Positions 6,891 to 54,711 are shown, numbered from the stretch's first letter. The stretch: DNA of 64,000 nt from a virus (IMGVR_UViG_3300042445_001485), one strand, 5' to 3'. Numbers and translations are program-made. Notes: generated by a model from the letters alone, not told the origin.

Positions 6891-8138
6891 TTATTTTCCT
6901 TTTGCGGCTTCTTCGTAATGTGCCCATACACCAAACTCGGGTTCAGCACTGGAGTTACCTTTAATAATCCAAACGGTATCGCAATAGTTTTCAACTGTAC
7001 TAGGCTCCCAACCAAAGAAGCAATAGTCAGTAAACATGATCAACTTCTTGGGTTCAATGTTGTTCTCACGCAGGTACTGCCACACGCACATGGGATCAGT
7101 ACCGCCACCACCCAAGGGATCAAACTCGGTAATGTCTGCCATGTTGTCGCTAGTAAATTCACCAACACCACCAATTTCAGTGTCCCAACCCACAATGTGG
7201 ATCTTGTACTCAGTATAACTATCCATGATGCCTTTGATCTCGCTAAAGAAGATTTTCAAATCCTCTGGGCCAATACTGCCGGATGTGTCAATGCCAATAA
7301 AGATATCAATAGTTTCTCCGGGCTTCATCCCCGGCATGATGGCATCCATGTGCCAACCTTTGCGACTAGGACGGGCAAATGTAAAATCGTTCTTGATAGT
7401 ACTTTGGATTTGTTGTTCCAACAACTCTTTCCAACCAATCATGGGTTCTGTTAGGTCCTTGATCATGCGTCTAACGCCACCGGGCAAGTTGCCTGCACCG
7501 CTTGCTTGAGCGGCTTGTAGTACAGCCTCTTTGATCTCGTCTTTGATGGCTTTCTTTTCTGCATCACTTAGTTTAGGACGACCTTTACCATCCTTGCCCT
7601 CGCCTTCGCCTTCGCCATCCAAGTGTTCGTCTAAAACCATTTGAGTCAATTTGCTGATGTCGATTTTGTTGGCATTCTTCATCAAGTCATCATAGACTTC
7701 TTCCATGCTCCAACCTTTGTACTTGGGATCGTACAACATACCGCATACAGTAATCTTCTCACCAATGCGTTGATCAATCAAGTCTGCGTTTACACAATAG
7801 TCTGCCGCAATATTCATAATTTTTCGATCGCGATCTCCAGTACGACCCATGTGGTCATACACCGCATGTAGTACCTCGTGTCCCACAAGGAACTCCACCT
7901 GTTTGAGTGGCATCTTGTTTACAAATTCTGAATTATAATAAAACTTGCGTCCATCTGTTGCGGCAGTAGGACACCAATCATCTGCATTAACTAATGTCAT
8001 ACGAGTTGCAAGATTACCAAAGAACGGTGCTTTAAGCAAAAGTCCAATACGGGCAGTGATTAGTTTTTCTCGAACTGCGGCATCAGTCTTTGGATTAGTA
8101 ACTGTTACTGCTTTTTCTTTTTCTACTACATCTGACAT
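6891..8138 (-). CDS. Metallopeptidase-like + VWA domain protein (MoxR partner, DUF2201-like)
   Basis: TAATDG, HEVLH (HExxH), C-terminal MIDAS DTSGS, GGGGTD and MFTD. Confidence 0.85.
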   Translation of the reverse strand: MSDVVEKEKAVTVTNPKTDAAVREKLITARIGLLLKAPFFGNLATRMTLVNADDWCPTAATDGRKFYYNSEFVNKMPLKQVEFLVGHEVLHAVYDHMGRTGDRDRKIMNIAADYCVNADLIDQRIGEKITVCGMLYDPKYKGWSMEEVYDDLMKNANKIDISKLTQMVLDEHLDGEGEGEGKDGKGRPKLSDAEKKAIKDEIKEAVLQAAQASGAGNLPGGVRRMIKDLTEPMIGWKELLEQQIQSTIKNDFTFARPSRKGWHMDAIMPGMKPGETIDIFIGIDTSGSIGPEDLKIFFSEIKGIMDSYTEYKIHIVGWDTEIGGVGEFTSDNMADITEFDPLGGGGTDPMCVWQYLRENNIEPKKLIMFTDYCFFGWEPSTVENYCDTVWIIKGNSSAEPEFGVWAHYEEAAKGK

Positions 8139-8688: not shown

Positions 8689-9789
8689 TTATTTGCCTGA
8701 CGCCGCGATAATGTACTTACCAAAACGCTTGTGGAACTCGTCAAAGTTCTTCATCTTGCCCGGCACCATGGGCAAGTTGTATGTGGTAAGTGCAACACGA
8801 GCACCCATAACAACCAATTCTGTAGTAAAATTAGCCATCATAAAGCCAAGGAAGTTGTCGGCTTGGGCATGCCAGTCTGCAAGTTTCTCTTTACCCAGCT
8901 TCTTGAAGCTGTCTTGAAGTTCATAACACAGGCTAATTGTCAAACTGTACATGGCACTGATTTCTTTTACCTTCAGGTCCTTGACCTTGCCACTCAAGAT
9001 TTCTTCTGGCTTGGGCATCTGGCCAGCAACCTTGCGGTGTGCCATAAACTTAAGAGCCAGGCCTTCACCCACAGTGCCAGCAATCAAGTCAGCCAATTCA
9101 GCGTCTGTTGCATCCTCGTCGTACAAGAACTGGCTTACAAAAGTCCATGTGCGTGGGGTAGCAAACGCACGACTTGCTGATTTTGGATCAAAGTCGAACA
9201 TGTCTTGTTTGGCAAAGCTGATGTAACCCACAACATCCTTGTGGATTTTTTGTCCCACAGCCCATTGTTGCCAAGACTCAAAGTCCGGACGCACTTCCAA
9301 GTGAACAAAGCGATTGGCCAGTGGACTGGGCATACGATAAGTAACACCCTTGTCGCTTTCACGATTACCTGCCGCAACAATTACAACATTGTCTGGCAAA
9401 TGATACTTGCCCACACGACGGTTCAAAATAAGTTGATAACCTGCGGCCTGTACAGCCGGTGCCGCACTATTCATTTCGTCTAGGAATAGTACAATAATAG
9501 GAAATTGCTTGGCCATCTCTGCATCAGGCAAGTCAATGGGAGGAGCCCAATCCATAACTTCTTTGTTCTTGTTAAAGAACGGGATACCACGAATGTCTGT
9601 GGGTTCCATTTGGCCCAGGCGTAGGTCAATCATGTGTCCACCCAAGTCTTCAGTAATGCCAGCAATCAATTCTGACTTACCAATTCCGGGAGGACCCCAC
9701 AAGAACACAGGACGTTTGTTTTTAAATGCACGAAGCACACGGCTACGGCATTCATTGGGGGTTACACTACGGTTTTCGGTCACGGACAT
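8689..9789 (-). CDS. MoxR-like AAA+ ATPase
   Basis: Walker A GPPGIGKS, Walker B LFLDEMN, AAGNR, PSPLANRF and TPRTW. Confidence 0.9.
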   Translation of the reverse strand: MSVTENRSVTPNECRSRVLRAFKNKRPVFLWGPPGIGKSELIAGITEDLGGHMIDLRLGQMEPTDIRGIPFFNKNKEVMDWAPPIDLPDAEMAKQFPIIVLFLDEMNSAAPAVQAAGYQLILNRRVGKYHLPDNVVIVAAGNRESDKGVTYRMPSPLANRFVHLEVRPDFESWQQWAVGQKIHKDVVGYISFAKQDMFDFDPKSASRAFATPRTWTFVSQFLYDEDATDAELADLIAGTVGEGLALKFMAHRKVAGQMPKPEEILSGKVKDLKVKEISAMYSLTISLCYELQDSFKKLGKEKLADWHAQADNFLGFMMANFTTELVVMGARVALTTYNLPMVPGKMKNFDEFHKRFGKYIIAASGK

Positions 9790-9857
9790 TACTTACTCCT
9801 TAAAAAATGTCGTTGTTACTAACACAGAATCTAGTTTACTAAAGATGTCTTTTGCAG

Positions 9858-10085
9858 TCAAATGTAGAAGGTTGTTTCAAAACCCAAAGCATCGTACACA
9901 ATTTCACGAACCATTGTGTCTGTACACTCACCGTAACCGGACACCGTTTGCAATTTGCAAAGCAGATTATAAGTCTCTGGCCAATTAAGACTGTTGGTCC
10001 GAGCATGTTCTACAATGACAGCAACTTCTTTGTTACCGGCATCTGTGAACATACCAAAATACGGAACTGCATTTACTTCTGACAT
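9858..10085 (-). CDS. Small early hypothetical protein
   Basis: Start MSEVN follows the promoter at 10116-10144. Confidence 0.65.
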   Translation of the reverse strand: MSEVNAVPYFGMFTDAGNKEVAVIVEHARTNSLNWPETYNLLCKLQTVSGYGECTDTMVREIVYDALGFETTFYI

Positions 10086-10115
10086 TTCCAACCCCTTTTT
10101 AGTTTCTATACAAGT

Positions 10116-10144
10116 ATTATACAAAAGATGCCTTTTCGGGTCAA
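10116..10144 (-). promoter_or_regulatory. Sigma70-type early promoter
   Basis: TTGACC-N17-TATAAT followed by ACTTGTATAGAAACTAAAA. Confidence 0.85.
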
Positions 10145-10150
10145 CCGTGT

Positions 10151-10426
10151 TCAACGGCTCAAGTTCATAACACGGGCGTCAAATTCCATAAAGCTGACTT
10201 CGAATGGAACTAAAATTTCTTTGCCAACACGACCGTGTATTTGTTTACCCTCGGTGTCCTCGTCCCAAGAATCATATGTGACTTCAATTACAAAGGCATC
10301 ATATAATTTTGTGTCAATTCGTTTAACAACACCTTCTACAAAACAATCTTCACGGCCTTTCATAGGCTTGAAATCGTATGCACGGATTGTATCTCCAACT
10401 TTAGCAATGTTTGCGAACTTTAACAT
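10151..10426 (-). CDS. Small early hypothetical protein
   Basis: 91 aa ORF with AGGAG SD, downstream of a promoter. Confidence 0.7.
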   Translation of the reverse strand: MLKFANIAKVGDTIRAYDFKPMKGREDCFVEGVVKRIDTKLYDAFVIEVTYDSWDEDTEGKQIHGRVGKEILVPFEVSFMEFDARVMNLSR

Positions 10427-10458
10427 TTTGGCTCCTGTTTATTAGTTTCAATACATGT

Positions 10459-10487
10459 ATTGTAATATAGATGCCATTATGGGTCAA
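10459..10487 (-). promoter_or_regulatory. Sigma70-type early promoter
   Basis: TTGACC-N17-TACAAT followed by ACATGTATTGAAACTAA. Confidence 0.8.
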
Positions 10488-10575
10488 ATTCTGGGCAAAA
10501 TACTTGTTGTTTTTAGGCAACAAAAAAGTAATACTCTAGTACTACTTTTTTTAGGGTATTACAAAGTACTACTTT

Positions 10576-11826
10576 TTACGGCTTTTCGAACAGCCACAAA
10601 TCTTCAAAATTCCCGCCCCGGGTTTTCTTGGCCTGTCTACTACCTGCAATGGCACTCCATTGCACTTTGTAATGTTGCTTCAATGGCATGTGGCGTTGAA
10701 CCACGTGCATCATGTCTTGACTAATGGCAACTTCTTGTTTATCTTTGTTTCTGTAGTTGCTAATTACAAATGCAAAACGGCCACCGGATCGTAAAACCTC
10801 AACTGCAATTTTTACAGTTTCGTTCCAATAACCTTCTAACCAATCTTGGTAGTTGGGAAAGCTGGAGAGGCTTTGTTCCTCACCGGGATATATTTCCAAA
10901 TCATAGTAGGGCGGGCTAAACAACACCGCATCAACTGAGTTGGCATACCTCTCAACAAATTCGTGTCTTGTATCAAGTTGTTCGCTGGGACACAGATACA
11001 GGTCTACTGTCTTGGTATCCATTTCCCATATACCTCGGTCGCTGTATTTTTTCCATTCTTCATGTAACAATCGACCGTTTTCAACTACCTCGGGAATTAC
11101 ATCCGTGGCAATCAGGTGCGTAAACTTACTGCTATAGAAACCAATTTGGTAAGCGTTCCACCCCATGCATGGAGCAAATAGTGTTTCACCTTCAAACAGT
11201 TCATCCACAATGCCACGATAAGTTGCAGGATTAAAAATACTGGCTCTGTTACAGCCAATCATAAAGTCTACCCACACTTGGTTGTAGTTCCCATCTATCT
11301 TGCAGATATGATCAAAGAACGCAGGTGCCGCTAGACTGTTGCGTATTTTAAAGTCCTCAAACATGGTCTTTAATAGGCCAAATGTGTACTCAAAATCGTT
11401 TGAATACAGCTTCTTGGTATTAAAGAAACTGTTGAAGTTGATGTTCTTGCACACACGACCGTATTTACTATTGGTACGACCAGCAAAAGTATTATCTACT
11501 AAAATGTCGGCGTCAGGTATATCAAAGTAAAAATCCAAGGGCTCTTTTAGGTCTGCTGTTTTGTTAAACCATTCTGCCAATGCCACCTCAGGCTCTTCAA
11601 CCAACATCTTGTACAGTTTGCGTTTATAAAGATCTAGTCGAGCTTCTCGATCGTCTCGCTTGGCCACCCGTTTGATAAAGGTATCCAAGTCACTACGCAC
11701 CACAAAGTTGCCAGACCGGTCACTGCCATTTAACACAGACACTTGGCGACTAAAGTCCTCAAATGTGGTATCGTGTTTGAAATCAAATAAGGATAAAAAG
11801 TGTTCTAGTGTATATGTCATGGTCAC
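10576..11826 (-). CDS. Putative amino-methyltransferase (N4-mC/N6-mA DNA MTase-like)
   Basis: SAM-binding-like LFAPCMGWNAY, LIATD, catalytic FSPPYYDLEIY, then LRSGGRFAFVISNY. Confidence 0.65.
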   Translation of the reverse strand: MTMTYTLEHFLSLFDFKHDTTFEDFSRQVSVLNGSDRSGNFVVRSDLDTFIKRVAKRDDREARLDLYKRKLYKMLVEEPEVALAEWFNKTADLKEPLDFYFDIPDADILVDNTFAGRTNSKYGRVCKNINFNSFFNTKKLYSNDFEYTFGLLKTMFEDFKIRNSLAAPAFFDHICKIDGNYNQVWVDFMIGCNRASIFNPATYRGIVDELFEGETLFAPCMGWNAYQIGFYSSKFTHLIATDVIPEVVENGRLLHEEWKKYSDRGIWEMDTKTVDLYLCPSEQLDTRHEFVERYANSVDAVLFSPPYYDLEIYPGEEQSLSSFPNYQDWLEGYWNETVKIAVEVLRSGGRFAFVISNYRNKDKQEVAISQDMMHVVQRHMPLKQHYKVQWSAIAGSRQAKKTRGGNFEDLWLFEKP

Positions 11827-15692: not shown

Positions 15693-16277
15693 TTAGCCTA
15701 AACCTGCTACCGATTGTTTCTCTACATTTGCTACCGATTGTTTCCATAGACGCTCTTCGAAACTGTCTGTGTCTTGCGGTTTATCCATTGCTTGTTTTAG
15801 TATCAGTTCAACATATTGGTTAAGAGTAATGTCGCGATCATGTGCTTGCTTCATCATCTCAAACACCAACTCATCCTCTAAATCCAACGGAACATCTACA
15901 CGACTATCATAGTCTAGACCGGCCACAATGGCCTGGGCTTTGTCCAACCAGTCTGCGTCTGTTTCTAGATCAACATAGTCAACATCGTCCCATGCTTCTC
16001 GACGACTAACACCACGCCGCTTGGCTTCTTTTTTGTTGGCTTTGGCATAGTCTGCATTGATCAACCTATATGCTCTATTGTTGACATAGTCGTGTGCTTG
16101 CACTTCGTATACTGCCTGTGTATCAGTATCGAACACAATACTAAAACTATGACCATCTGGCTCACCATTCCATGAATCCAACATGTAGGCATTGGATCCG
16201 TAACATTGCCATCCATACTCACTACCTTCGGTGATACGGTAGTTTACAGTTTCCATAAATTGTTTAAGAGAGATCAT
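15693..16277 (-). CDS. Hypothetical protein, possible C-terminal ribbon-helix-helix
   Basis: 194 aa; the segment VPLDLEDELVFEMMKQAHDRDITLNQYVELIL is RHH-like. Confidence 0.65.
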   Translation of the reverse strand: MISLKQFMETVNYRITEGSEYGWQCYGSNAYMLDSWNGEPDGHSFSIVFDTDTQAVYEVQAHDYVNNRAYRLINADYAKANKKEAKRRGVSRREAWDDVDYVDLETDADWLDKAQAIVAGLDYDSRVDVPLDLEDELVFEMMKQAHDRDITLNQYVELILKQAMDKPQDTDSFEERLWKQSVANVEKQSVAGLG

Positions 16278-16434
16278 TGTTTGTTTCCTTGCGTTGATTT
16301 ACTACAATTTCAAGCCATCCCACTACAGCAATTAGCCATCCTGTGTTACCTAGCTGATCCCAAGTTGCCACAACCATAATAATAGACATTATTAAAATTG
16401 CAATTGATACTATTTCTTTAACTGTTTTCATCAT
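16264..16434 (-). CDS. Small two-TM membrane protein
   Basis: Start MMKTVK; two hydrophobic segments. Confidence 0.55.
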   Translation of the reverse strand: MMKTVKEIVSIAILIMSIIMVVATWDQLGNTGWLIAVVGWLEIVVNQRKETNNDLS

Positions 16435-16831
16435 TGTTCTTTCTGCCGCTATGGGCTTCACATACTGTTTTAATCCAACCACCACCCGTACTCTTACCAG
16501 GGTTACCGCATGTTTCGCAAGTAACACCCGACATAGATTGTGCCATACTAACAAGTCCGTCAATGTAGTCATCACCACCTGTGTAGTAAAAACGTAGTGT
16601 ACCAAACTTTTCTTTAACTTGATCTACAGTTACCTGTGTTACAATCTCACCTTTTCTATTCCGCCAATCAATGTGATGTTGTATATTGCCCATGAGTTGA
16701 TCAATGATATTGTACCAACCATCGCCACATTCAAATCCCCAATACATGGTGGTTTCCATCATGCTCTTGTTACGATTCACCATCATCTTGGGATACTTCT
16801 CACATAACAATGCGTCTAGTTCCAATTTCAT
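16418..16831 (-). CDS. Hypothetical phage protein
   Basis: 137 aa; GFECGDGW, QVKEKFGTLRFY and TCETCG motifs. Confidence 0.75.
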   Translation of the reverse strand: MKLELDALLCEKYPKMMVNRNKSMMETTMYWGFECGDGWYNIIDQLMGNIQHHIDWRNRKGEIVTQVTVDQVKEKFGTLRFYYTGGDDYIDGLVSMAQSMSGVTCETCGNPGKSTGGGWIKTVCEAHSGRKNNDENS

Positions 16832-17103
16832 TCTTCAACTCCGAAATGTTCTTTCATCTTCTTATCTTCCGCCAAGGCGCCAAAGATAATAGATGCAAAT
16901 GTCCAACATACTAATGCAGGTATCATTAACATGAACATTACTGCTAATCTTATGCCTCCTTCGCCGTCTGAGTATTTTAACCCAGTCCATGTTGTATTAG
17001 TCCAAAACCAATAAAACATATCAATAAATGATACCAAAAGGGGTGAGGCAAATAACAATGTAAATGCTGACAATATTGTGGCTAATAGTTTCCAAATCAT
17101 CAT
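16828..17103 (-). CDS. Membrane protein ending in the array junction (HFGVEE)
   Basis: Two hydrophobic helices; C-terminus KEHFGVEE encoded by the shared junction block. Confidence 0.7.
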   Translation of the reverse strand: MMIWKLLATILSAFTLLFASPLLVSFIDMFYWFWTNTTWTGLKYSDGEGGIRLAVMFMLMIPALVCWTFASIIFGALAEDKKMKEHFGVEE

Positions 17104-17312
17104 TCAACTCCAAAATGCGCTTTAATATGTTCATCAGGGGGCATATGATATTGATTATGATTTTTATACCAGTCAGCAGTGACCTCGGTACATTCCCGAA
17201 CAATCAACTCGGCGAACTTTTCTAATTCTTGTGACAATGAATTTCCATAGCGGTCTTGGTGTCCATTTTCAAAGCCGGCCTGTTCAGCAAGTTCTATGAT
17301 TCGTTCGTTCAT
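17100..17312 (-). CDS. MNERI-family array paralog
   Basis: MNERIIELAEQA...EKFAELIVREC...HFGVE. Confidence 0.85.
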   Translation of the reverse strand: MNERIIELAEQAGFENGHQDRYGNSLSQELEKFAELIVRECTEVTADWYKNHNQYHMPPDEHIKAHFGVE

Positions 17313-17608
17313 AGTTCAACTCCGAAATGATGTACAATTTCATTTACGATGGCATCTTCATCGGGAGCAAATCTACATTGTCTGACAATATCACAACATT
17401 CTTTCACAATCAACTCGGCGAACTTTTCCTGGTCTAATGCTTTGATTTCTGTATATCCACCATCAGTATATCCAACAACTTTTTGAGCCTGTAGAGCAAG
17501 TTGTTTAATCCGTTCGTTCATATCTTTTCGTCCTTTATGTACAACAGTGGCAGAATCCTGAATAGCATCAACTAGTATCTTGTGTTCGTCTGGTGTAAGT
17601 TCATTCAT
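17309..17608 (-). CDS. MNERI-family array paralog with a 29 aa N-terminal extension (internal start 17521)
   Basis: MNELTP...MNERIKQLALQA...EKFAELIVKEC...HHFGVEL. Confidence 0.8.
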   Translation of the reverse strand: MNELTPDEHKILVDAIQDSATVVHKGRKDMNERIKQLALQAQKVVGYTDGGYTEIKALDQEKFAELIVKECCDIVRQCRFAPDEDAIVNEIVHHFGVEL

Positions 17609-17865
17609 TCTTCAACTCCGAAACGATATGAGATATCTTCGTAAATAGTTTCTGCCCGTTTATCTGCCGCGGCACTTTCATCCGAGTAACTATAATTGTA
17701 TTCTCCTGCTGGACCGTAAGTATTTGACTTAACAATGCCCAAACATTCCCGCACAATCAACTCGGCGAACTTTTGTTCATCGAAGTCAGCTACCAACAGC
17801 TCACCATTTACTCCGTAAGTTTCAATTCGGCACGGTTCAGCAAGTTCTTTAATTCGTTCATTCAT
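17605..17865 (-). CDS. MNERI-family array paralog
   Basis: MNERIKELAE...QKFAELIVREC...RFGVEE. Confidence 0.85.
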   Translation of the reverse strand: MNERIKELAEPCRIETYGVNGELLVADFDEQKFAELIVRECLGIVKSNTYGPAGEYNYSYSDESAAADKRAETIYEDISYRFGVEE

Positions 17866-18113
17866 TCTTTAACTCCAAAATGTTTTCTAATCTTTCTAAC
17901 CGTATCCTTGTCATGTTCTTTCAACGCACGAACTCGTTCATTGGCAAATGGCTCATGTGGATTTAGTATCATGTACCGTTGATCCACAAACAAGTCGGCA
18001 CATTCTTTCACAATCAACTCGGCGAACTGTTCTACATCGAGTTCTCCATTGGAATACCCACTGGTTCCTAGTGTAAATGCCTGATCATAAAGTTCTTGCA
18101 TTCGTTCGTTCAT
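17862..18113 (-). CDS. MNERI-family array paralog
   Basis: MNERMQEL...EQFAELIVKEC...KHFGVKE. Confidence 0.85.
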   Translation of the reverse strand: MNERMQELYDQAFTLGTSGYSNGELDVEQFAELIVKECADLFVDQRYMILNPHEPFANERVRALKEHDKDTVRKIRKHFGVKE

Positions 18114-18331
18114 AGTTCAACTCCGAAAAAATGTCGCTTGACTGTAGCAAAATCTGGCCAGGGTTGATCGTCTAGTGTGGCATTAAGAATGTAAGCATAT
18201 ACTTCAACTAATACCAACTCAGCGAATTTCAAGTCCACAAATTGTTGATAATGGTCCAGTTTAAGTCCAGCGTTAACGCCGTCAACATAGTCCGTGGCCT
18301 GTTGTTTAAGTTCTTTAATTCGTGTGGTCAT
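18110..18331 (-). CDS. MNERI-family array paralog (divergent)
   Basis: MTTRIKELKQQA...LKFAELVLVEV...HFFGVEL. Confidence 0.8.
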   Translation of the reverse strand: MTTRIKELKQQATDYVDGVNAGLKLDHYQQFVDLKFAELVLVEVYAYILNATLDDQPWPDFATVKRHFFGVEL

Positions 18332-18423
18332 TTCTCTAACCCTTTAACAAAAAGACTGCCTACTATTGCCAACAGGAATAACATTCCAAGAGCAATAGCA
18401 TAAACTATTAAAAATTCAATCAT
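18328..18423 (-). CDS. 31 aa membrane peptide (not in the ORF track)
   Basis: MIEFLIVYAIALGMLFLLAIVGSLFVKGLEK; ATGA overlaps at both ends and a GGAG SD. Confidence 0.6.
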   Translation of the reverse strand: MIEFLIVYAIALGMLFLLAIVGSLFVKGLEK

Positions 18424-18551
18424 TCTTCAACTCCTTTAGTACAAGAGATTTTATCTGGGCTGTACATCAGCACAAAGTTACCAACATTCAATGTGCCCAG
18501 CACAGCCAGCAACACTACAAATCCACCAACCACGGCAAACAGTGTCTTCAT
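18420..18551 (-). CDS. 43 aa membrane peptide ending in GVEE (not in the ORF track)
   Basis: MKTLFAVVGGFVVLLAVLGTLNVGNFVLMYSPDKISCTKGVEE. Confidence 0.65.
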   Translation of the reverse strand: MKTLFAVVGGFVVLLAVLGTLNVGNFVLMYSPDKISCTKGVEE

Positions 18552-18748
18552 TCTTTAACTCCGAAATGTTGTTTAATATCATTTACTGCACTGCGAGCAT
18601 CATAATGATTACCTGCAAGTTCAATACAATCTGCCACAAGCAACTGGGCGAACTTGTTCAGTTCATATCCTGTAACATCTTTCAGTACAGTCCCGTCTTT
18701 GTTAAAGACCTCAGACTGGATCAACAGTTGTTTAATTCGTTCGTTCAT
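18548..18748 (-). CDS. MNERI-family array paralog
   Basis: MNERIKQL...NKFAQLLVADC...QHFGVKE. Confidence 0.85.
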   Translation of the reverse strand: MNERIKQLLIQSEVFNKDGTVLKDVTGYELNKFAQLLVADCIELAGNHYDARSAVNDIKQHFGVKE

Positions 18749-18981
18749 TCTTCAACTCCGAAATGTTTAAAAATTTTTGAACAGCACCAATCGCCATCGG
18801 CTTTCTCTCGGTCAATGATTTCTTCAACACATTCCCGCACAATCAACTCGGCGAACTTTTCGTTATACACTTCCCCAAACTTGATGGCATAATCTTCATC
18901 ACTTAAATCAAGGTAATCTATCATTAAGGTATTGGCGTATTTTGTAGCCTCTACAGCAAGTTCTTTAATTAGTTCGTTCAT
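18745..18981 (-). CDS. MNERI-family array paralog
   Basis: MNELIKELA...EKFAELIVREC...KHFGVEE. Confidence 0.85.
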   Translation of the reverse strand: MNELIKELAVEATKYANTLMIDYLDLSDEDYAIKFGEVYNEKFAELIVRECVEEIIDREKADGDWCCSKIFKHFGVEE

Positions 18982-19108
18982 TCTTCAACTCCTCACTCAA
19001 TTCTTCGATTCGTTCTGCCGCCATCAACAACAGCATCTGGAGGGCAATATTATCAGCCACGCTTTTGGCCGCTGTCTTCATTGTTTCTGATAATTCATAG
19101 TCTGTCAT
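18965..19108 (-). CDS. 47 aa hypothetical peptide reading the junction in another frame (not in the ORF track)
   Basis: MTDYELSETMKTAAKSVADNIALQMLLLMAAERIEELSEELKNERTN. Confidence 0.55.
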   Translation of the reverse strand: MTDYELSETMKTAAKSVADNIALQMLLLMAAERIEELSEELKNERTN

Positions 19109-19308
19109 TCTTTAACTCCGTAATGTTTGTTGAATCGCTCAGAGAAAGGTTCCAAGCCATATCCAGGCACAAAGTCAGCAGAGACCTGAGCACATTCCCG
19201 CACAATCAACTCGGCGAACTTGTGCAGTTCAGGAGTAAGACTACCATCTTCGTTAATAAAGGTGCGAGTATTAGCCTGTCTAACAAGTTGTTTAATTCGT
19301 TCGTTCAT
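19105..19308 (-). CDS. MNERI-family array paralog
   Basis: MNERIKQL...HKFAELIVREC...KHYGVKE; directly downstream of the promoter at 19338. Confidence 0.85.
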   Translation of the reverse strand: MNERIKQLVRQANTRTFINEDGSLTPELHKFAELIVRECAQVSADFVPGYGLEPFSERFNKHYGVKE

Positions 19309-19327
19309 TTTAGGCTCCTTTTAGTTT

Positions 19328-19504
19328 CTATACAAGTATTATAACAAATGGGTAATTATTGGTCAACCGCTTTTGCCCGCACATCTGTGTTGAGTGCAGG
19401 TCAACATTATCGGACAGCATAAGTTGTCCATCAGACAATTCAATGTATCCTTTTTCTAGGGTGGCACCAGCCTGTTTAGCAAGTTCTTTCAATCGTTCGT
19501 TCAT
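19328..19504 (-). pseudogene. Truncated MNERI-family paralog interrupted by a promoter cassette
   Basis: MNERLKELAKQAG...DNVDL lacks the KFAELIV and HFGVEE blocks and runs into the promoter sequence. Confidence 0.65.
19338..19366 (-). promoter_or_regulatory. Sigma70-type early promoter inside the array
   Basis: TTGACC-N17-TATAAT-ACTTGTATAGAAACTAAAAGGAG; nearly identical leader to the promoter at 10116. Confidence 0.85.
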
Positions 19505-19505
19505 G

Positions 19506-19697
19506 TCAATTACCCCAGCCAACGTTTTTGGATGCTTGCACATGATCCGCTGTTTGTTTCTTTTCAAACATGATCTTAGAATAATACTCGCCGGTGTCAC
19601 CTTGGAAACATGGATCGCCCAGTGCGGCATATCTCCATTTAGACAGCAACTGCTCGTATGTTGCGCCGTCAATCCATGCTTTGGTCTGTTCGTTCAT
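19506..19697 (-). CDS. Small hypothetical protein
   Basis: 63 aa ORF with GGAG SD and ATGA overlap. Confidence 0.65.
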   Translation of the reverse strand: MNEQTKAWIDGATYEQLLSKWRYAALGDPCFQGDTGEYYSKIMFEKKQTADHVQASKNVGWGN

Positions 19698-19900
19698 TTT
19701 ACTTCTCCGTGTAGGACTTCGTAATCTGCCACTCGCTGACGCATTTCAGCAATGGCTTTCTCTTGGGCAGCAGGATAACCACCGGCTGGACGATTGCGGT
19801 CAAGACCATCCAGCACTGACTTGTCCGAGGCAATTGTTGCGTGGTTGTTGATGCTGGGGTCAGTGCCACGACCGATAATCTTTAAGTTGAAAAACATCAT
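19694..19900 (-). CDS. Small hypothetical protein
   Basis: Start MMFFN after a GGAG SD, downstream of a promoter. Confidence 0.6.
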   Translation of the reverse strand: MMFFNLKIIGRGTDPSINNHATIASDKSVLDGLDRNRPAGGYPAAQEKAIAEMRQRVADYEVLHGEVK

Positions 19901-19932
19901 TGAACTCCTATTCACTATCAATCAATACATGT

Positions 19933-19961
19933 ATTATATACCCAAAATCATTTTCTGTCAA
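19933..19961 (-). promoter_or_regulatory. Sigma70-type early promoter inside the array
   Basis: TTGACA-N17-TATAAT-ACATGTATTGA. Confidence 0.85.
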
Positions 19962-19975
19962 TTCAGTAGAAAGTA

Positions 19976-20212
19976 TTACTTTTCTTCAACTCCGAAATGT
20001 TTTCCTATCCGCTTAGAACAATCATCTGCCCAAGCACTATATAATCCATCGTGATGTGTTCCTCTGTCAGCACAGACTTTAACACATTCTTCTACAATCA
20101 ACTCGGCGAACTGTTCAATGTCTATGTCTGTCATCAGTTCGATAACTTCACGGTCAGTTGGCCAGAAAACCATTTGAGATTGTTTTGCAAGTTCTTTAAT
20201 TCGTTTGTTCAT
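19976..20212 (-). CDS. MNERI-family array paralog
   Basis: MNKRIKELAKQ...EQFAELIVEEC...KHFGVEEK. Confidence 0.85.
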   Translation of the reverse strand: MNKRIKELAKQSQMVFWPTDREVIELMTDIDIEQFAELIVEECVKVCADRGTHHDGLYSAWADDCSKRIGKHFGVEEK

Positions 20213-20393
20213 TCTTTAACTCCAAATTTTTCCCATCAACCAACATCATATTCATGGCACACTTATGACAGATATAACAGAATTGTGTATCAAGGTCAGC
20301 ATAAGTTTCATACTCATGATTAAATGTATCACAATACGAACACAAAATCTTTACACGATTGTGATGATTAATTTTGACCTTTTCTATTATCAT
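20196..20393 (-). CDS. Small zinc-ribbon-like protein
   Basis: CSYC...CYICHKC; ends ELKNEQTN, which is the junction read in another frame. Confidence 0.6.
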   Translation of the reverse strand: MIIEKVKINHHNRVKILCSYCDTFNHEYETYADLDTQFCYICHKCAMNMMLVDGKNLELKNEQTN

Positions 20394-20519
20394 TCTTCAA
20401 CTCCAAAACAGTTTTTTAACATAACTGAAAATAATCATAAAAATGGTAAAGTAAGCAGCCGCACCCGCCATCAACAGATACACAACAGCCCACCAACCTG
20501 CTCGGTCACCTTCGGTCAT
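20390..20519 (-). CDS. 42 aa membrane peptide ending in FGVEE (not in the ORF track)
   Basis: MTEGDRAGWWAVVYLLMAGAAAYFTIFMIIFSYVKNCFGVEE. Confidence 0.6.
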
Positions 20520-20704
20520 TCTTTAACTCCGAAATGTTTCAACAAAAATTCTAAATCAGGGTGACCTTTATGAAAGGCAGTATCAATACATTCCCGCACA
20601 ATCAACTCGGCGAACCGTTCCATAAACTTTGTCTGTTCTTCCCAAGAATCACTTTGAGTTGTTTTAGCAGCCTCTTCCCAAATTTGTTTAATTCGTTCGT
20701 TCAT
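20516..20704 (-). CDS. MNERI-family array paralog
   Basis: MNERIKQI...ERFAELIVREC...KHFGVKE. Confidence 0.85.
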   Translation of the reverse strand: MNERIKQIWEEAAKTTQSDSWEEQTKFMERFAELIVRECIDTAFHKGHPDLEFLLKHFGVKE

Positions 20705-20961
20705 TCTTCAACTCCAAAATGGTTTTTAAACCTTGTTCGCCACTGATTCAACCATTCAATGTATTCAGTGGGTCTTTCGCTTGGTTCAAAACAATGATAG
20801 GCATCATCTTCGGCCTGTTCCATCATTCCACACATTTCCCTGACAATCAACTCGGCGAACTTTTCCGCTTCTTCTTGATTAAGAGAAAGTCCAACTGAGG
20901 CATCATAGCAAGGAACACCACCTATTGCCCGAATCATAAGTTGTTTGATTCGTTCGTTCAC
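20701..20961 (-). CDS. MNERI-family array paralog
   Basis: MNERIKQL...EKFAELIVREMC...NHFGVEE. Confidence 0.85.
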   Translation of the reverse strand: MNERIKQLMIRAIGGVPCYDASVGLSLNQEEAEKFAELIVREMCGMMEQAEDDAYHCFEPSERPTEYIEWLNQWRTRFKNHFGVEE

Positions 20962-21254
20962 GATTCAACTCCGAAATGTTCTTCCAACATATCCACAGCA
21001 TCTTCCTTCAAACGGTATGCGGCAAACAAAGCACCGCTGGCGTTGTGTGCTTGACCCTGTGGTGGATTACGACTAAACTGCTCCCAACTCTCGCCCGAAT
21101 CTTTTAGTAGTTCACAACATTCCCGCACAATCAACTCGGCGAACTTTGCCAAATTCTCATCAGTGAATGCCAATCCAGTGACGGCTCTCATAGGAGCACG
21201 ACTCCAAGTTTCGGCTCCAGCCTGTTCGGCAAGTTCTCTAATTCGTTCATTCAT
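20958..21254 (-). CDS. MNERI-family array paralog
   Basis: MNERIRELAEQA...AKFAELIVRECC...EHFGVES. Confidence 0.85.
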   Translation of the reverse strand: MNERIRELAEQAGAETWSRAPMRAVTGLAFTDENLAKFAELIVRECCELLKDSGESWEQFSRNPPQGQAHNASGALFAAYRLKEDAVDMLEEHFGVES

Positions 21255-21257
21255 TCT

Positions 21258-21476
21258 TCAACTCCGAAATGTTTTGTGTAGGGCTTCAAGATAATTGTCG
21301 GTGCCCATATGTAAATTGCCATTATCAATCTTATCATAAATTCCAGCACATTCACCGACAATCAACTCGGCGAACTTTTCCTTGAATGTTATTACATAAC
21401 CTACGCCATATAATTCATTTTGTTCATTGGCATATTCAGTAGCCTGTTCAGCAAGTTTTTGAATTCGTTCATTCAT
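21258..21476 (-). CDS. MNERI-family array paralog with the terminal block out of frame
   Basis: MNERIQKLAEQA...EKFAELIVGEC...LHKTFRS; the junction DNA is intact but read in a shifted frame after an A run. Confidence 0.8.
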   Translation of the reverse strand: MNERIQKLAEQATEYANEQNELYGVGYVITFKEKFAELIVGECAGIYDKIDNGNLHMGTDNYLEALHKTFRS

Positions 21477-21576
21477 ATCAAATACCCTATAATAAACGCT
21501 AATGCAAATCCTACTATACAAAAGTATAGAGTACCTATAGAGAATAAAAACGCATCATCCAAAATATCTTTTAGTT

Positions 21577-21789
21577 TCATACTGCACGACCTGTTCGCAT
21601 ATAGAGATATTCATCCAGTTCCCGTTCATAGGGTTTTCCTAGTCTCCGTAATTGAAAGATTTTATCAATCAGCTCATCACTATTACCCATAGTAGGAGAA
21701 TACTTACCACGGCTTTCCAATTCATCAATAAGTTCATCGTCATCAAAATCCGATAACTCAACTTCGACCTCAATCATTTTATATGTCAT
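21577..21789 (-). CDS. Small acidic hypothetical protein
   Basis: 70 aa ORF with ATGA overlap. Confidence 0.65.
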   Translation of the reverse strand: MTYKMIEVEVELSDFDDDELIDELESRGKYSPTMGNSDELIDKIFQLRRLGKPYERELDEYLYMRTGRAV

Positions 21790-22004
21790 TCTTCAGACTC
21801 CTGCATTCCAAAGTATTCCACGATGCTGTTGTAGACTTCATAATTGCCGTCAGCCTTGAGCGCACCGATATCAGCACATTTCTGCACAATCAGTTCGGCG
21901 AACTTCTCAATATCAAAGTGTTTGTCAATCATAAATCTTTTTTGATCATACACTTGATTCCATGCACCGCATTGTAGTGCAAGTTCTTTAAATCGTTTGT
22001 TCAT
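21786..22004 (-). CDS. MNERI-family array paralog
   Basis: MNKRFKELA...EKFAELIVQKC...EYFGMQE. Confidence 0.8.
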   Translation of the reverse strand: MNKRFKELALQCGAWNQVYDQKRFMIDKHFDIEKFAELIVQKCADIGALKADGNYEVYNSIVEYFGMQESEE

Positions 22005-22219
22005 TCTTCAATTCCAAAATGTTTCTTGATATGTTTGGCAACTGTATAGCCTTGCCCTAAAGTCAACTCATCAAATTTGTAAGCAATGTCTGCACATTCC
22101 AACACAATCAATCTAGCAAACTCTTTGTTGTAAGTTTCAATCCATTTGTCTACAGCAAGTATACCTTGTGGTACATTTTCTTTAGCCCGAGTGGCAAGAG
22201 CCTGTGTACGCTCATTCAC
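22001..22219 (-). CDS. MNERI-family array paralog (divergent)
   Basis: MNERTQALA...KEFARLIVLEC...KHFGIEE. Confidence 0.8.
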   Translation of the reverse strand: MNERTQALATRAKENVPQGILAVDKWIETYNKEFARLIVLECADIAYKFDELTLGQGYTVAKHIKKHFGIEE

Positions 22220-23205
22220 TCTGGATAACTCCTAGAAAGAAAGTCCACATGTGACTGTGCCTGTTCGCTGATGCGTTTCAAATCATACTTGCCACAGAAC
22301 TTTAGGAACAGAGTACCAATCTGCGGTATTGACTTGACTACACTATTTGTGGCAATGGTTTCTGCAATGATTGCTTTGATATTATCAGGCTGTGCAGAAA
22401 GATCCACCAACACACGATTGCGTTCATAGTCATCTAGTACACGGTGTTCTGCACCATTATGGTCTACCCAACGTTGCAACATCATATTGTTCCAAGAGAA
22501 ACCTTTATTTTCACGGTCTTGGAAGGCTTCCTCGAGCCCAATTCTTTTCGAAGAGCCCTTAGTGCGGACACCAGGGAATGCCGAGAAGATGTTGTCGGTG
22601 GGATCTCCGCGCATACACTTTTCGAACAGTATCCATTTAGGGTCTGGAATAGTTTTTGCTTCTTTAGTTTTTTTATCTTTAACTGGGGCACCTTTCTTGT
22701 CAAAGATGCCTGTGGTGGTATGGAGCTCATCTGATATTCCGTTATATTGTTTAACATTGTTGGCCAGCAGTTGATAAAAGTCTGTGTCAGAACTTACGAT
22801 TATGTGTTCATCTCCAGGGTGTGCTTGAATCCATCCTGCCACCAGGTCATCCGCTTCGAGTTGGCTGTGCTGGAGAACAGTACAATTGGACTTTTCGTAC
22901 AGGAACGTTTTGAGTTCATCAAAAGCGTCCCAAAATAGTTGATCTTCTTCTTGCTCTTTTTCAGTGAGTGCCGCACGGGCAACTGCTCGATTTTTCTTGT
23001 ACGGCTCATAGTAATCCTTACGCCACGAACGACCTTCTAAACAGAATATGACATGATCAGCCCGCTGATCGCGAAATGCTTTTGCAACACTACTCAGTGT
23101 GACATGGATTGCAAACCCAAGTCTATCCCAAGTGTCGCTCTGACGATGTGCCGCATGACGAGCACGGAAGAAAGTATTTGCGGTGTCTACAATAAGATAT
23201 TTCAT
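22216..23205 (-). CDS. rnh: 5'-3' exonuclease / T4 RNase H-like (FEN family)
   Basis: YLIVDTANTFFR, LEADDLV, IVSSDTDFYQL and GDPTDNIFS acidic clusters. Start at MKYLIVD after a promoter-like site (TTGACT-N17-TATTAT). Confidence 0.88.
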   Translation of the reverse strand: MKYLIVDTANTFFRARHAAHRQSDTWDRLGFAIHVTLSSVAKAFRDQRADHVIFCLEGRSWRKDYYEPYKKNRAVARAALTEKEQEEDQLFWDAFDELKTFLYEKSNCTVLQHSQLEADDLVAGWIQAHPGDEHIIVSSDTDFYQLLANNVKQYNGISDELHTTTGIFDKKGAPVKDKKTKEAKTIPDPKWILFEKCMRGDPTDNIFSAFPGVRTKGSSKRIGLEEAFQDRENKGFSWNNMMLQRWVDHNGAEHRVLDDYERNRVLVDLSAQPDNIKAIIAETIATNSVVKSIPQIGTLFLKFCGKYDLKRISEQAQSHVDFLSRSYPE

Positions 23206-23222
23206 GTAGTTATAATAGCATA

Positions 23223-23960
23223 TTATTCTATTTGAGTCAAATGCGTAACAAGATATTCTGCCCATTTTGCGTGAGCTTCTTTACCATAATGGTAATTTCC
23301 TTCAGCCACTGTTTGGAATCCTAAATTTTCGAGCCAGTAGTAATAAGTGGAATTTTGATTGTAGGGATCTATGTAGTTGTTGTGCCACTCGTACTGGCCC
23401 GGATTGATATGATTGGTTGAGATATGATCACGCTCGATTAGTGCAAAGTTTGAGTAGGTATTAAAAAATAGATGTCTAATTCCGCGAGACTTAAGACTCA
23501 TATGGAATTGGTGTATACGCTTGTGCCATTCAAGCATCTTGCGTTCTCGTTCAACTTCACCCTGCGCTACAACCCACTGTTTGTATTTATCCCGTAATTC
23601 TGGGGGAACTTGGTCCTTGCCACTTGCATTAACTTGATAATAAACATCGTTATGCAACCATTCTTCTCGTTCCCATGTACTCCAACCTATCAATATTACC
23701 AGATCATTGATGCTGGCTGTTTCGAGGAAAATCTCTGTAGTGCGTACGATCCGATCATTGGAACTACCACTTTCAGCTTGATTAATCCAATCCCATCCTA
23801 ATTTTTTAGCCGCAACGACACCAAAAGATGATGGCAAGTTTTGTGCATGACCGTGCCTATGTGGCCTAGCATAATGACGATCGCCATCGTTGGCAAAACT
23901 ATAAGGAACTACTGCTTCTGCCCCGACACTATGACTGTCGCCATTGATGTACAAGATCAT
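23223..23960 (-). CDS. SGNH/GDSL-like hydrolase-fold protein
   Basis: N-terminal NGDSH, GSSND, IGWST and C-terminal HY..EAH; start at MILYIN (ATGA overlap). Confidence 0.55.
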   Translation of the reverse strand: MILYINGDSHSVGAEAVVPYSFANDGDRHYARPHRHGHAQNLPSSFGVVAAKKLGWDWINQAESGSSNDRIVRTTEIFLETASINDLVILIGWSTWEREEWLHNDVYYQVNASGKDQVPPELRDKYKQWVVAQGEVERERKMLEWHKRIHQFHMSLKSRGIRHLFFNTYSNFALIERDHISTNHINPGQYEWHNNYIDPYNQNSTYYYWLENLGFQTVAEGNYHYGKEAHAKWAEYLVTHLTQIE

Positions 23961-28009: not shown

Positions 28010-28515
28010 TATGCAAACAAGTCCTCATTCCATTCACGATGTCCTTCACGGAACGCCATGTTGGCCTGTGTTTCGCGAACTTCTACACGATAGCACCAAA
28101 GTCTTGCGGCCTCACCCGGACCCCACATTTCGGGAATGTAAACACCATTAACATACTTGTACAGCATGTCACTGAGTCCTTCACAACCCAGTCGGGGCAA
28201 TACCACAACCTTGGCCATGTTCCGCTCCTGTAGCAACTTAAATGTTGCCATTTCAGGATCATCTTGTGCCACAATAAGTGTGTGGTCAAATTGATCTTCT
28301 AATGTTTTCTTTAGTTCTTTGAGTCCGCCATAATCGGCGGCCCAGTTACGCACATCCAGTTCGTTAGTTCCAAAATAGAACTTCATTGAGAATGAATATC
28401 CGTGTATCAAATTACAATGGCTATCGCTCCTCCACTGTCTATACGCACATGGAAATGCGTCGTGATACTCTTTGGTACTGGTATATTTGTATACCACGGG
28501 ATTTAATGTTGTCAT
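28009..28515 (-). CDS. queD: 6-carboxy-5,6,7,8-tetrahydropterin synthase QueD
   Basis: SHCNLIHGYS (CxxxHG), DYGGLK, FDHTLIV and VEVRET. Confidence 0.88.
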   Translation of the reverse strand: MTTLNPVVYKYTSTKEYHDAFPCAYRQWRSDSHCNLIHGYSFSMKFYFGTNELDVRNWAADYGGLKELKKTLEDQFDHTLIVAQDDPEMATFKLLQERNMAKVVVLPRLGCEGLSDMLYKYVNGVYIPEMWGPGEAARLWCYRVEVRETQANMAFREGHREWNEDLFA

Positions 28516-28524
28516 GCTGTTTCT

Positions 28525-28585
28525 CCTATGTTAATTATAGCATAGGCTGGCAGAGTTTGTAAAGCGGGATGAAGCCAAGGCCGCC
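28525..28585 (-). ncRNA. Candidate preQ1-I-like pseudoknot riboswitch plus SD-sequestering hairpin in the queD leader
   Basis: P1 GGCGG/CCGCU, loop CCUUGGCUUCAUC, A-rich UUACAAACUCU, P2 UUGGC/GCCAG; then CCUAUG/CAUAGG covering the AGGAGA SD. Confidence 0.5.
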
Positions 28586-54710: not shown

Positions 54711-54711
54711 A

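Follow-up and report, generated by a model that had tools for sequence, protein, structure and literature searches.

Organization of the mini-gene array

The window analyzed here, a stretch of 64,000 nt of viral DNA (IMGVR_UViG_3300042445_001485), comes from a giant lake-water phage and carries an array of tiny two-half genes. As had been stated in the initial annotation of this DNA, 15 complete ORFs of 62-99 aa with shared blocks and one truncated copy were recovered, all complete ones on the minus strand between 17100 and 22219, and they are accompanied by a membrane mini-gene that has the C block only and by approximately eight unrelated mini-genes scattered among the family genes (Table 1). 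The gene layout consists of the junction with the N block, a variable part (V1), the mid block, a second variable part (V2), and the C block/junction. A repeat search of the array gave two DNA repeat families, the junction/N block in 14-16 copies and the mid block in 13. The 18-mer CAATCAACTCGGCGAACT, previously reported as exact in 10 copies, was indeed exact in 10 and had 1-2 mismatches in three more (0.02 expected by chance), and the junction GGAGTTGAAGAATGA occurred 17 times in the array at ≤2 mismatches (0.18 expected). The dissimilarity of the inserts was also evident, the maximum pairwise identity within the array being 27% for V1 and 25% for V2. Each of the 15 products is acidic (pI 4.4-6.1).

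Only two strong promoter-like sites were found in the 5.4-kb array, none of them in the 14-17 repeated junctions or the 13 mid blocks, and the minus strand of 16828-22219 showed no hairpin resembling a terminator. Judging from these two sigma-70 consensus sites, the array is probably transcribed early.

Table 1. Features of the array, with positions counted from the first nucleotide of the window
Feature	Position	Strand	Remarks
Family gene 1	22001-22219	-	72 aa; GTG start, coupled by overlap (GTGA) with the stop codon of the 5'-3' exonuclease gene lying upstream (22216-23265)
Family gene 2	21786-22004	-	72 aa; V1 similar to V1 of the L001/P0029 copy
Family gene 3	21258-21476	-	72 aa; retains junction DNA, read in a different frame (end ..TFRS); V1 paired with other V2 types in 21 database proteins
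Family gene 4	20958-21254	-	98 aa; used for AlphaFold model and dimer prediction; V1 common to the L064 copy and P0013, both with different V2
Family gene 5	20701-20961	-	86 aa; GTG start
Family gene 6	20516-20704	-	62 aa; V2 88% (aa) and 92% (nt) identical to the L041 copy, whose V1 is unrelated
Family gene 7	19976-20212	-	78 aa; V2 with other V1 types in 34 database proteins (e.g., L057 copy, P0035)
Truncated family copy	19328-19504	-	N block and V1, without mid block; promoter-like site where the mid block would be
Family gene 8	19105-19308	-	67 aa; first gene past the second promoter-like site
Family gene 9	18745-18981	-	78 aa; third junction frame (..ELKNERTN) used by the unrelated 47-aa ORF upstream (18965-19108)
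Family gene 10	18548-18748	-	66 aa
Family gene 11	18110-18331	-	73 aa; most diverged member (MTTRIKEL.., FAELVLVEV)
Family gene 12	17862-18113	-	83 aa
Family gene 13	17605-17865	-	86 aa; exact protein on 15 contigs from JGI, ENA, and NCBI samples
Family gene 14	17309-17608	-	99 aa; 29-aa N-terminal extension opening with an N-block remnant; full family unit from internal ATG at 17521; V1 identical to that of P0002, whose V2 differs
Family gene 15	17100-17312	-	70 aa; clearest mosaic
Membrane mini-gene (non-family)	16828-17103	-	91 aa; ends in C block/junction (..KEHFGVEE), serving the next gene (16418-16831)
Promoter-like site, sigma-70 consensus	19933-19961	-	TTGACA-17-TATAAT (12/12); in array gap
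Second promoter-like site	19338-19366	-	TTGACC-17-TATAAT and upstream TG; in truncated copy
Mid-block core	17201-17218	+	Reverse complement of AAGTTCGCCGAGTTGATTG; encodes KFAELI; one of 13
Other 12 mid-block cores (starts)	17407, 17754, 18011, 18637, 18840, 19203, 20095, 20599, 20844, 21128, 21359, 21887		
Non-family cassette	20196-20393	-	65-aa four-Cys protein; same junction precedes
Non-family cassette	20397-20519	-	40-aa membrane peptide; same junction precedes
Further non-family mini-genes	18420-18551, 18965-19108, 19506-19697, ORF within 19694-19921, 21577-21789		

Conservation of the blocks at the DNA level

The junction (approximately 45 nt) combines the terminal codons of the preceding gene, a ribosome-binding site (GGAG) located 9 nt ahead of the ATG, an ATGA stop/start overlap, and the first codons of the following gene (MNERIKELA). 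It is probably a nucleic-acid signal, as it is translated by the upstream ORFs in three frames (ending in HFGVEE, TFRS, or ELKNERTN) and also stands ahead of unrelated genes. All three blocks described in the initial annotation are present, but the one given as KHFGVEE is mostly the Shine-Dalgarno site and ATGA overlap of the next gene. The mid block, approximately 30 nt long, encodes KFAELIVREC.

Synonymous sites of the blocks were found to be fixed in 60-73 unrelated viral contigs, as expected from the proposed conservation at DNA level including wobble positions, and the blocks are exact across 23-27 nt in scores of phages. Non-preferred codons dominate in them, with shares far from the background (given in parentheses) for CGA (0.93; 0.14), GCC (0.88; 0.22), GAG (0.89; 0.26), TTG (0.90; 0.23), and GGA (1.00; 0.23), which excludes codon bias as the source of block identity; because such codons are fixed across unrelated contigs, purely local gene conversion is insufficient as well. 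The synonymous conservation is a family-wide property across unrelated phages rather than a peculiarity of one array. Recombination alone may not fully account for it, and the mid block may have a direct nucleic-acid function. In a folding test, pairing between the initiation region and the mid block was slightly in excess of that after synonymous recoding (9.2 vs 6.2 expected pairs); no consistent helix was found between the two (highest mean pair probability 0.16), and an Rfam search gave no match.

Mosaic half-genes and selection on the variable modules

The clearest evidence for exchange comes from family gene 15, whose V1 half (from junction to mid block) is approximately 99% identical in nucleotides to the L004 copy while its V2 half (from mid block to next junction) is 100% identical to the L001 copy, other homologous genes of the same phages being just 65-80% identical; the breakpoints are located in the mid block and junctions. 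Among its best 120 database matches, 86 matched the V1 half only, 30 the V2 half only, and two both, and its V1 was joined to at least 58 V2 clusters and its V2 to at least 15 V1 clusters. For 12 of the 15 array genes, a module recurs elsewhere, joined to another partner. V1 and V2 assort almost independently. Among 52 pairs in which V1 identity was at least 70%, only 13 shared V2 and 38 had V2 identity below 30%, and 18 converse pairs (V2 alike, V1 not) were detected. DNA alignments pass from 99-100% identity to unrelated sequence within the blocks, with right and left breakpoints at 9-31 nt within the mid block and, around the ATG, at -18 to +35. Mosaic pairs are also present within single genomes (L037 and L060), P0013 carries a duplicated mid block that looks like a recombination scar, and P0001 consists of two copies fused in frame. 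The chimeric copies that the initial annotation had suggested searching for in related contigs do exist, and their switch points support its central proposal, in which recombination at the blocks exchanges the variable parts of a small helical scaffold.

Purifying selection acts on V1 (pN/pS 0.13) as well as on V2 (pN/pS 0.21). The pS values obtained from the same pairs were 0.21 in the N block vs 0.72 in V1, in line with the earlier statement that synonymous-site identity in the blocks adjoins diverged inserts. The inserts are discrete conserved module types which are reassorted; the idea of shuffled variable loops holds for the shuffling, but not for loops that keep mutating.

Population structure and family distribution

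All data were metagenomic. The array of the window was found in eight independent assemblies (JGI, ENA, and NCBI), which were 98.5-100% identical, collinear, and free of indels in aligned stretches, and no recombinant array was seen across these eight contigs of its own phage population. Only three anomalies, switches at the ends of short contigs, were detected, and these could be assembly tips. The exchange previously described as ongoing is therefore documented between phages, but not inside the phage's own population. Mosaic partners are located in the interior of 143-234 kb contigs and were recovered from more than one sample; for example, P0029 was found in three ENA samples, in one case on a 234-kb contig with 55x coverage. 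In the relative L008, two family genes are present between the DHFR and thymidylate synthase genes, which overlap directly in the window.

At 50% identity, the family falls into 9,535 clusters, and 50,697 GenBank phages lack it. It is a very large, unstudied, combinatorial family from uncultured freshwater phages, and as phages swap halves at DNA-identical linkers, the array samples a very large combinatorial protein repertoire.

Predicted fold and dimerization

Two AlphaFold models (pLDDT 79 and 86) showed the same three-helix layout, namely an N helix, a long central helix that spans the mid block, and a C helix, which fits the small helical scaffold proposed earlier. The conserved blocks are predicted to form a three-helix core that dimerizes. 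For family gene 4, ESMFold2 gave an ipSAE of 0.82 vs 0.01 for the best control, a mark reached by 20 of 30 proteins solved as one-chain pairs and by one of 23 solved as single chains, counts that are only roughly valid here since our own alignment was used; contact agreement between runs was ≥98% and partner pLDDT was ≥88. Among the contributors to the predicted interface are the mid block, with I42, V43, and C46, the C block, with H93 and F94, and the N block; C46 touches C46' of the partner chain. In these models, V1 and V2 would provide most of the variable residues and also contacts at the interface.

Searches for known relatives gave no match in Pfam for eight members (just two stray weak matches among 92) and none in PHROGs. 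A PDB profile search returned designed helical repeats only (E=0.003), Foldseek returned nothing at E≤0.001, and VIA-align returned generic helical hairpins (Z≤6.8).

Interpretation and alternative explanations

The preferred reading, with a probability of about 0.8, is a coupled mini-gene cluster from a very large freshwater phage family with half-gene exchange at DNA-identical blocks. The genes would be translationally coupled through the ATGA overlaps, and the junction and mid block, nearly identical in DNA across many unrelated phages, would serve as crossover places for homologous recombination, probably of the general kind acting on short homologies. A crossover at the blocks would reassort V1 and V2 half-genes into new chimeric proteins and would also bring entire cassettes, unrelated mini-genes with the same junction among them, to new sites and new phages. 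The products would be small acidic proteins with a block-built three-helix core, predicted to be dimers, and we infer that their most likely role is a repertoire of early host-directed binders for takeover or counter-defence.

It is possible, although clearly less probable, that the blocks are functional nucleic-acid signals, with the junction as a tuned translation-initiation/coupling region and the mid block as a binding site for a regulator, nuclease, or structure, and that the mosaics are a passive by-product. The position of GGAG before the ATG, the ATGA overlap, the three-frame reading, the unrelated genes preceded by the junction, the family-wide rather than genome-specific conservation, and the small pairing excess with real over recoded mid-block codons all agree with such signals, and for the junction the idea is probably true and compatible with the preferred reading. 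For the mid block, however, neither a consistent helix with the initiation region nor an Rfam match nor a candidate binding factor was found, and it encodes the best-conserved residues of the predicted dimer core, so that part of its conservation lies at the protein level. The sharp confinement of breakpoints to blocks that are exact over 23-27 nt in scores of phages might instead reflect a dedicated enzyme, such as a homing-type nuclease or site-specific recombinase, which recognizes the mid block or junction and drives break-induced gene conversion. An HNH endonuclease is encoded in the window (6891-8138), but approximately 9 kb away from the array; no nuclease or recombinase gene stands beside the arrays in the loci inspected, inverted repeats or attC-like sites were not found, and the breakpoints scatter over approximately 30 nt instead of falling at a single position, all of which makes this explanation unlikely.

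Very unlikely is the proposal that the products are packaged head-internal proteins, in which MNERIKELAE would be a T4-type capsid-targeting leader (it presumably resembles MKTYQEFIAE of T4) and the hydrophobic-x-Glu motifs of the three blocks (LAE, FAE, and VEE) would be prohead-protease sites freeing the V1 and V2 peptides. Leaders of this type have about 10 aa, end in (L/I)-x-E, and are cut by the prohead protease. A 1274-aa protein of the same window does have repeated QGVAEG and QGVEEG linkers, but these lack junction DNA; the N block, which ends in L-A-E at residues 8-10, and the mid block are modeled as well-ordered helices inside the predicted dimer core, and the array contains sites of the sigma-70 type but lacks a TATAAATA late-promoter motif. 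Even less credible are mosaics created by metagenome assemblers joining different phages at shared 25-45-nt blocks. Logan contigs from four lake runs do end exactly at blocks, and the three short contigs mentioned above have switches at their ends; however, typical reads and the k-mers of final assembly exceed such blocks in length, the array is the same in the eight independent assemblies, the mosaic partners are embedded in the 143-234 kb contigs from several samples, and intragenomic pairs exist.

A more far-reaching extension of the preferred reading, which we consider rather doubtful, is a community-wide combinatorial repertoire of linker-exchangeable V1/V2 modules on a common dimer core. 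Thousands of modules would then stay exchangeable through nucleotide-identical linkers, which selection might favour directly, or an enzyme might target, as sites of exchange, and co-expressed paralogs would also pair among themselves, with the near-invariant Cys and His as a possible bridge, so that the 15 genes of one phage could yield over a hundred binder species. The phage community of a lake would jointly keep the library, which would correspond in phages to a recognition repertoire built by recombination and directed against host defences or host factors.

Comparison with known systems

Several known systems share some features with the array. In T4-type phages, promoter-early stem-loop (PeSL) cassettes are intergenic promoter-plus-terminator units whose short repeats among small early ORFs act as crossover points, by which small genes are inserted, deleted, or replaced, and a transfer of genes from phage to phage has been proposed for them (Arbiol et al. 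2010, PMC2839356; Comeau et al. 2014, PMC4122927). Like the array junction, PeSL repeats end in a Shine-Dalgarno site and start codon, and the array repeats also host recombination between phages, as suggested by the mosaics and the two extra cassettes of L008. In contrast, the array repeats lie inside coding sequence with ATGA overlaps and no intergenic space, and a second, mid-gene repeat swaps half-genes in frame to give chimeric proteins. The array was not classified as PeSL cassettes, its repeats being coding and having neither a sigma-70-like promoter nor a stem-loop terminator.

Integron arrays consist of small promoterless mobile cassettes behind an upstream promoter, and their content is highly variable between relatives. 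Here, the exchange points are in-frame coding blocks, and no integrase was found beside the arrays in the loci inspected; an integron cassette array was rejected because attC-like inverted repeats are missing, the sole inverted repeat in 16500-22500 being one pair 2.7 kb apart. A diversity-generating retroelement also appears unlikely, as no template/variable repeat pair differing at adenines was found, the variable parts are at most 27% identical, and the modules are under purifying selection; no reverse transcriptase was found among the selected window ORFs scanned.

In T-even phages, the gp38 tail-fibre adhesins have conserved glycine-rich motifs between hypervariable segments (Trojet et al. 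2011, PMC3157838). In both cases, the structural core of a single protein is made of conserved segments, and the variable segments that these keep apart can be exchanged independently; however, gp38, a virion adhesin present in single copy, has four variable segments, whereas the array encodes tandem multi-copy, non-structural acidic proteins of 60-100 aa with two modules, its linkers are conserved at nucleotide level across phages, and there is no sequence relation to gp38. Neisseria pilE/pilS and Borrelia vlsE, which undergo mini-cassette gene conversion in bacterial antigenic variation, are tandem stores of variable segments in which short conserved flanking DNA guides recombination into chimeric coding sequences, with one expression site and silent donor copies in a single genome. 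The array likewise has variable segments flanked by short conserved DNA blocks that appear to guide recombination, but all of its copies are complete genes that have starts of their own, and the documented exchange occurs mainly between phages.

Organization of the array and its junction

Every long ORF in the window is encoded on the minus strand. One specifies a T4-type DNA polymerase with 51% identity to its counterpart in Sinorhizobium phage Phosso and 47% to the one in Agrobacterium phage Atu_ph07; others encode a Lon-like protease, an ATPase and an HNH endonuclease. Megablast against 50,697 GenBank phage records found no close phage for the region, the window sequence was present in at least 24 lake-water metagenome runs, and the longest contig with the proteins of the array was 210 kb; the source is therefore an uncultured freshwater jumbo phage.

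Between 17100 and 22219, 15 ORFs of 62-99 aa align as a single family, in which two variable halves (V1 and V2) are separated by a mid block (KFAELIVREC, with F, A, L and V near-invariant) and flanked by an N block (near-invariant M1, N2, R4 and L8) and a C block (HFGVEE, near-invariant F and G). The inserts are mutually unrelated, as the initial annotation had stated, identity being at most 27% among the 15 V1 and at most 25% among the 15 V2. The 18-mer to which it had drawn attention occurs in 10 exact and three nearly exact copies (0.02 expected), and a DNA repeat search returned two repeat families, one covering the junction and N block (14-16 copies) and the other the mid block (13 copies). 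About eight unrelated mini-genes are interspersed among the family genes, and two of the three genes for membrane peptides also have the GVEE ending.

Features within the array
Feature	Position	Strand	Remark
Membrane-peptide gene, 91 aa	16828-17103	-	embedded in array, same junction
Membrane-peptide gene, 43 aa	18420-18551	-	embedded in array, same junction
Truncated family copy	19328-19504	-	runs into promoter-like site
Promoter-like site, near-perfect sigma-70	19338-19366	-	stands in place of mid block of truncated family copy
Promoter-like site, near-perfect sigma-70	19933-19961	-	consensus match
Membrane-peptide gene, 40 aa	20397-20519	-	embedded in array, same junction

Nearly every family start is preceded by the same junction, CATTTCGGAGTTGAAGA followed by ATGA, in which GGAG lies nine bases before the ATG and the stop of the upstream gene overlaps the start; the C block is mostly a translation signal. 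Within the array 17 copies were counted against 0.18 expected, and the junction also lies ahead of unrelated genes and of family genes with an unrelated upstream neighbour. The upstream ORFs read it in three frames, ending in HFGVEE, in TFRS (gene 21258-21476) or in ELKNERTN (18965-19108 and 20196-20393), from which it follows that the junction is conserved as nucleic acid.

The two promoter-like sites, both in gaps of the array, match the sigma-70 consensus at 12 of 12 positions and at 11 of 12 with an upstream TG, and the position of one of them within the truncated copy suggests that a promoter may have been inserted at, or recombined into, a cassette. No T4-type late-promoter motif was found within the array, and its first gene is coupled to a 5'-3' exonuclease gene. 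At the level of motifs, early or middle transcription would fit; no RNA dataset was among the runs listed for the array.

Conservation at synonymous sites

Codon usage was compared at conserved residues in copies from 60-73 different loci, with the codon use of those loci as background. The same non-preferred codons were fixed across loci, which excludes codon bias alone, the explanation that would have undone the initial reading of the blocks, and indicates that the effect is not peculiar to this genome. Among pairs whose V1 was still recognisably homologous, the proportion of synonymous differences was 0.21 in the N block versus 0.72 in the adjoining V1, in line with the contrast between blocks and inserts drawn from the sequence at first sight. 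The pN/pS ratios were 0.13 for V1 and 0.21 for V2, implying that both halves encode proteins under purifying selection.

Codons fixed at conserved residues of the family
Codon	Share of synonymous codons	Background
CGA	0.93	0.14
GCC	0.88	0.22
GAG	0.89	0.26
TTG	0.90	0.23
GGA	1.00	0.23
AAC	0.96	0.39

The synonymous fixation of the mid block may reflect either homogenisation through constant exchange or a direct role of the nucleic acid. With regard to an RNA-based explanation, Rfam gave no match and pairing prediction gave no consistent helix joining the initiation region to the mid block; a folding test of the same two regions showed a modest pairing excess, of which the GC content of the natural codons may be the source.

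Half-gene mosaics among lake phages

Chimeric copies, which the initial annotation had suggested looking for in related contigs, were found in number. V1 was at least 70% identical in 52 of 21,115 copy pairs, of which 13 also had V2 in common and 38 had a V2 less than 30% identical; the converse pattern (V2 in common, V1 not) occurred in 18 pairs. The clearest case is the gene at 17100-17312. It shares about 99% DNA identity with a copy on one viral contig (L004) over the stretch that begins at the junction and ends at GAGTTGATTGT within the mid block, and is unrelated to it thereafter; compared with a copy on another contig (L001), it is unrelated until the mid block, after which the DNA is 100% identical as far as the following junction. 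Elsewhere, homologous genes of these two phages share only 65-80% DNA identity with those of the window, so the shared halves are far younger than the genomes in which they reside. In pairs from different phages, the inner breakpoints lie 9-31 nt into the mid block or no more than 7-9 nt from its first base, and the outer ones from -18 to +35 relative to the ATG or 3 nt beyond the stop. The proposal of recombination at the blocks is thus borne out. Intragenomic mosaics were also seen in two loci (L037 and L060). As a check against artefacts, the mosaic partners were found to lie inside long contigs and to recur in independent samples, and the window's own module combination was assembled identically eight times.

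The same picture emerged from proteins. The best 120 matches of the gene at 17100-17312 comprised 86 to V1 only, 30 to V2 only and two to both. At least 58 different V2 clusters were seen paired with its V1, and the V1 partners of its V2 fell into at least 15 clusters. For 12 of the 15 array genes, a module was found elsewhere with another partner in a sample of 660 proteins. What had been pictured as loops diversifying in place are instead discrete, conserved half-gene modules under purifying selection, reassorted across a metapopulation of lake phages. In addition, a tandem duplication of the mid block (KFAELIVREFAELIVREC) occurs in one database protein (P0013), and another (P0001, 150 aa) consists of two family units fused in-frame; by their sequences, both resemble the outcome of exchange at the blocks that was unequal or imprecise.

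The initial annotation also called the exchange ongoing, which holds between phages and over evolutionary time but not for contigs of the same population. Eight contigs from JGI, ENA and NCBI samples are 98.5-100% identical to the array with unchanged gene order, and no indels were found in their aligned stretches. Anomalies in same-phage contigs occur at contig ends only: V2 of no known kind directly after the mid block (L089), a leader (19734-19697) joined to the N block of gene 20958-21254 (L086), and 15 mismatches in the first 110 nt (L091). They could be real recombinants or assembly tips and were set aside as evidence. Logan contigs of four lake runs break at the blocks; nearly all sides of the joints listed are shorter than 31 nt and a few are 31-36 nt, and joints this short may stem from other organisms or repeats.

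Family size, distribution and mobility of cassettes

At least 7,995 of the 8,000 candidates listed in a profile search were significant, and HMMER, run exhaustively on 1.84 billion representatives, yielded 9,535 clusters at 50% identity (E<=0.001). Members are named hypothetical or unnamed, except for one stray automatic JGI label, and neither Pfam nor PHROG had a match to the family. A scan with an HMM, covering 80 IMG/VR loci and the other loci retrieved, detected 304 copies in 82 sources, often as tandem arrays with as many as 14 copies within 16 kb. The contigs that carry arrays measure 25-375 kb, and the genes next to the arrays differ between them. No cultured relatives were found among the 50,697 GenBank phage records by tblastn of one member or with the junction and mid block as blastn queries, the only match being a chance-level one of 28 nt. 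In lake metagenome contigs, block-containing bins of the interval 16000-23000 were several-fold deeper than flanking phage sequence, with a summed depth of up to roughly 5-80 times the flanks (runs X1, X7, X13 and X17), which indicates that block k-mers are common to many other family members in the same waters; the family is abundant in lake metagenomes.

Whole cassettes also differ in position. A related viral contig of 191 kb (L008) is collinear with the window around 2.9-9.8 kb, and at 9342-11300 its DHFR and thymidylate synthase genes are separated by two ATGA-chained family genes, whereas those of the window overlap each other directly (2902-4276). The DHFR of this contig has a Cys-rich extension of about 50 aa, which is not present in the window's DHFR and looks like a fused zinc-ribbon mini-gene. 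In L001, a DNA ligase gene lies about 300 nt upstream of the half-sharing copy, and a single small ORF occupies the interval.

Predicted structure of the proteins

Two AlphaFold models (pLDDT 79 and 86) agree in layout: the N block forms an N-terminal helix and V1 a loop or hairpin, a long helix then runs across the mid block, and V2 follows, with a C-terminal helix that leads to HFGVEE. For the member at 20958-21254, homodimer prediction gave an ipSAE of 0.82 (best of three controls, 0.01), with contact agreement of at least 98% between runs and partner pLDDT of at least 88. Among proteins of solved structure, 20 of 30 pairs of one chain and one of 23 single chains attained this mark, counts that hold only roughly here as the run used a custom alignment. 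The predicted interface draws on the N block, three mid-block residues (I42, V43 and C46), two C-block residues (H93 and F94) and portions of both variable halves, and the near-invariant Cys contacts the Cys of the other chain. The prediction supports a putative homodimeric state. All 15 array proteins are acidic. Searches of Pfam, PHROGs, a PDB sequence profile, Foldseek PDB, VIA-align and the ESM Atlas gave no functional lead, returning only viral hypothetical clusters or generic helical hairpins; possibly, the modules target host defence or takeover factors.

Relation to known systems

The closest described mechanism is found in T4-type phages, where short conserved sequences, the promoter-early stem-loop (PeSL) cassettes, shuffle whole genes modularly (PMC2839356, PMC4122927), and the closest analogue in design is gp38, the tail-fibre adhesin of T-even phages, with conserved motifs between variable segments (PMC3157838). 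Unlike either, the array has in-frame coding linkers, exchanges half-genes, uses its junction additionally as a coupling signal and belongs to a very large family. Two coding linkers, wobble-conserved across many unrelated lake phages, would let half-genes recombine into new proteins and could also let whole cassettes reach new positions. The family offers a natural, easily traced system for measuring environmental recombination between phages, and a compact scaffold with thousands of natural variable modules.

Other observations in the window

The 1274-aa protein encoded at 50973-54797 (minus strand) is composed of dissimilar segments with repeated linkers between them (EQGVAEG, KQGVEEG, KQGMAEG), and the linker peptide resembles the GVEE ending of the mini-genes. 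Derivation of the QGVEEG linkers from junction DNA was rejected, no match being found within two mismatches. A 74-nt stretch (28513-28584) is 93% identical to 17241-17313 of an otherwise diverged phage contig (L041), in which the neighbouring protein is only about 53% identical to that of the window; from the sequence comparison, this conservation would fit a structured RNA.
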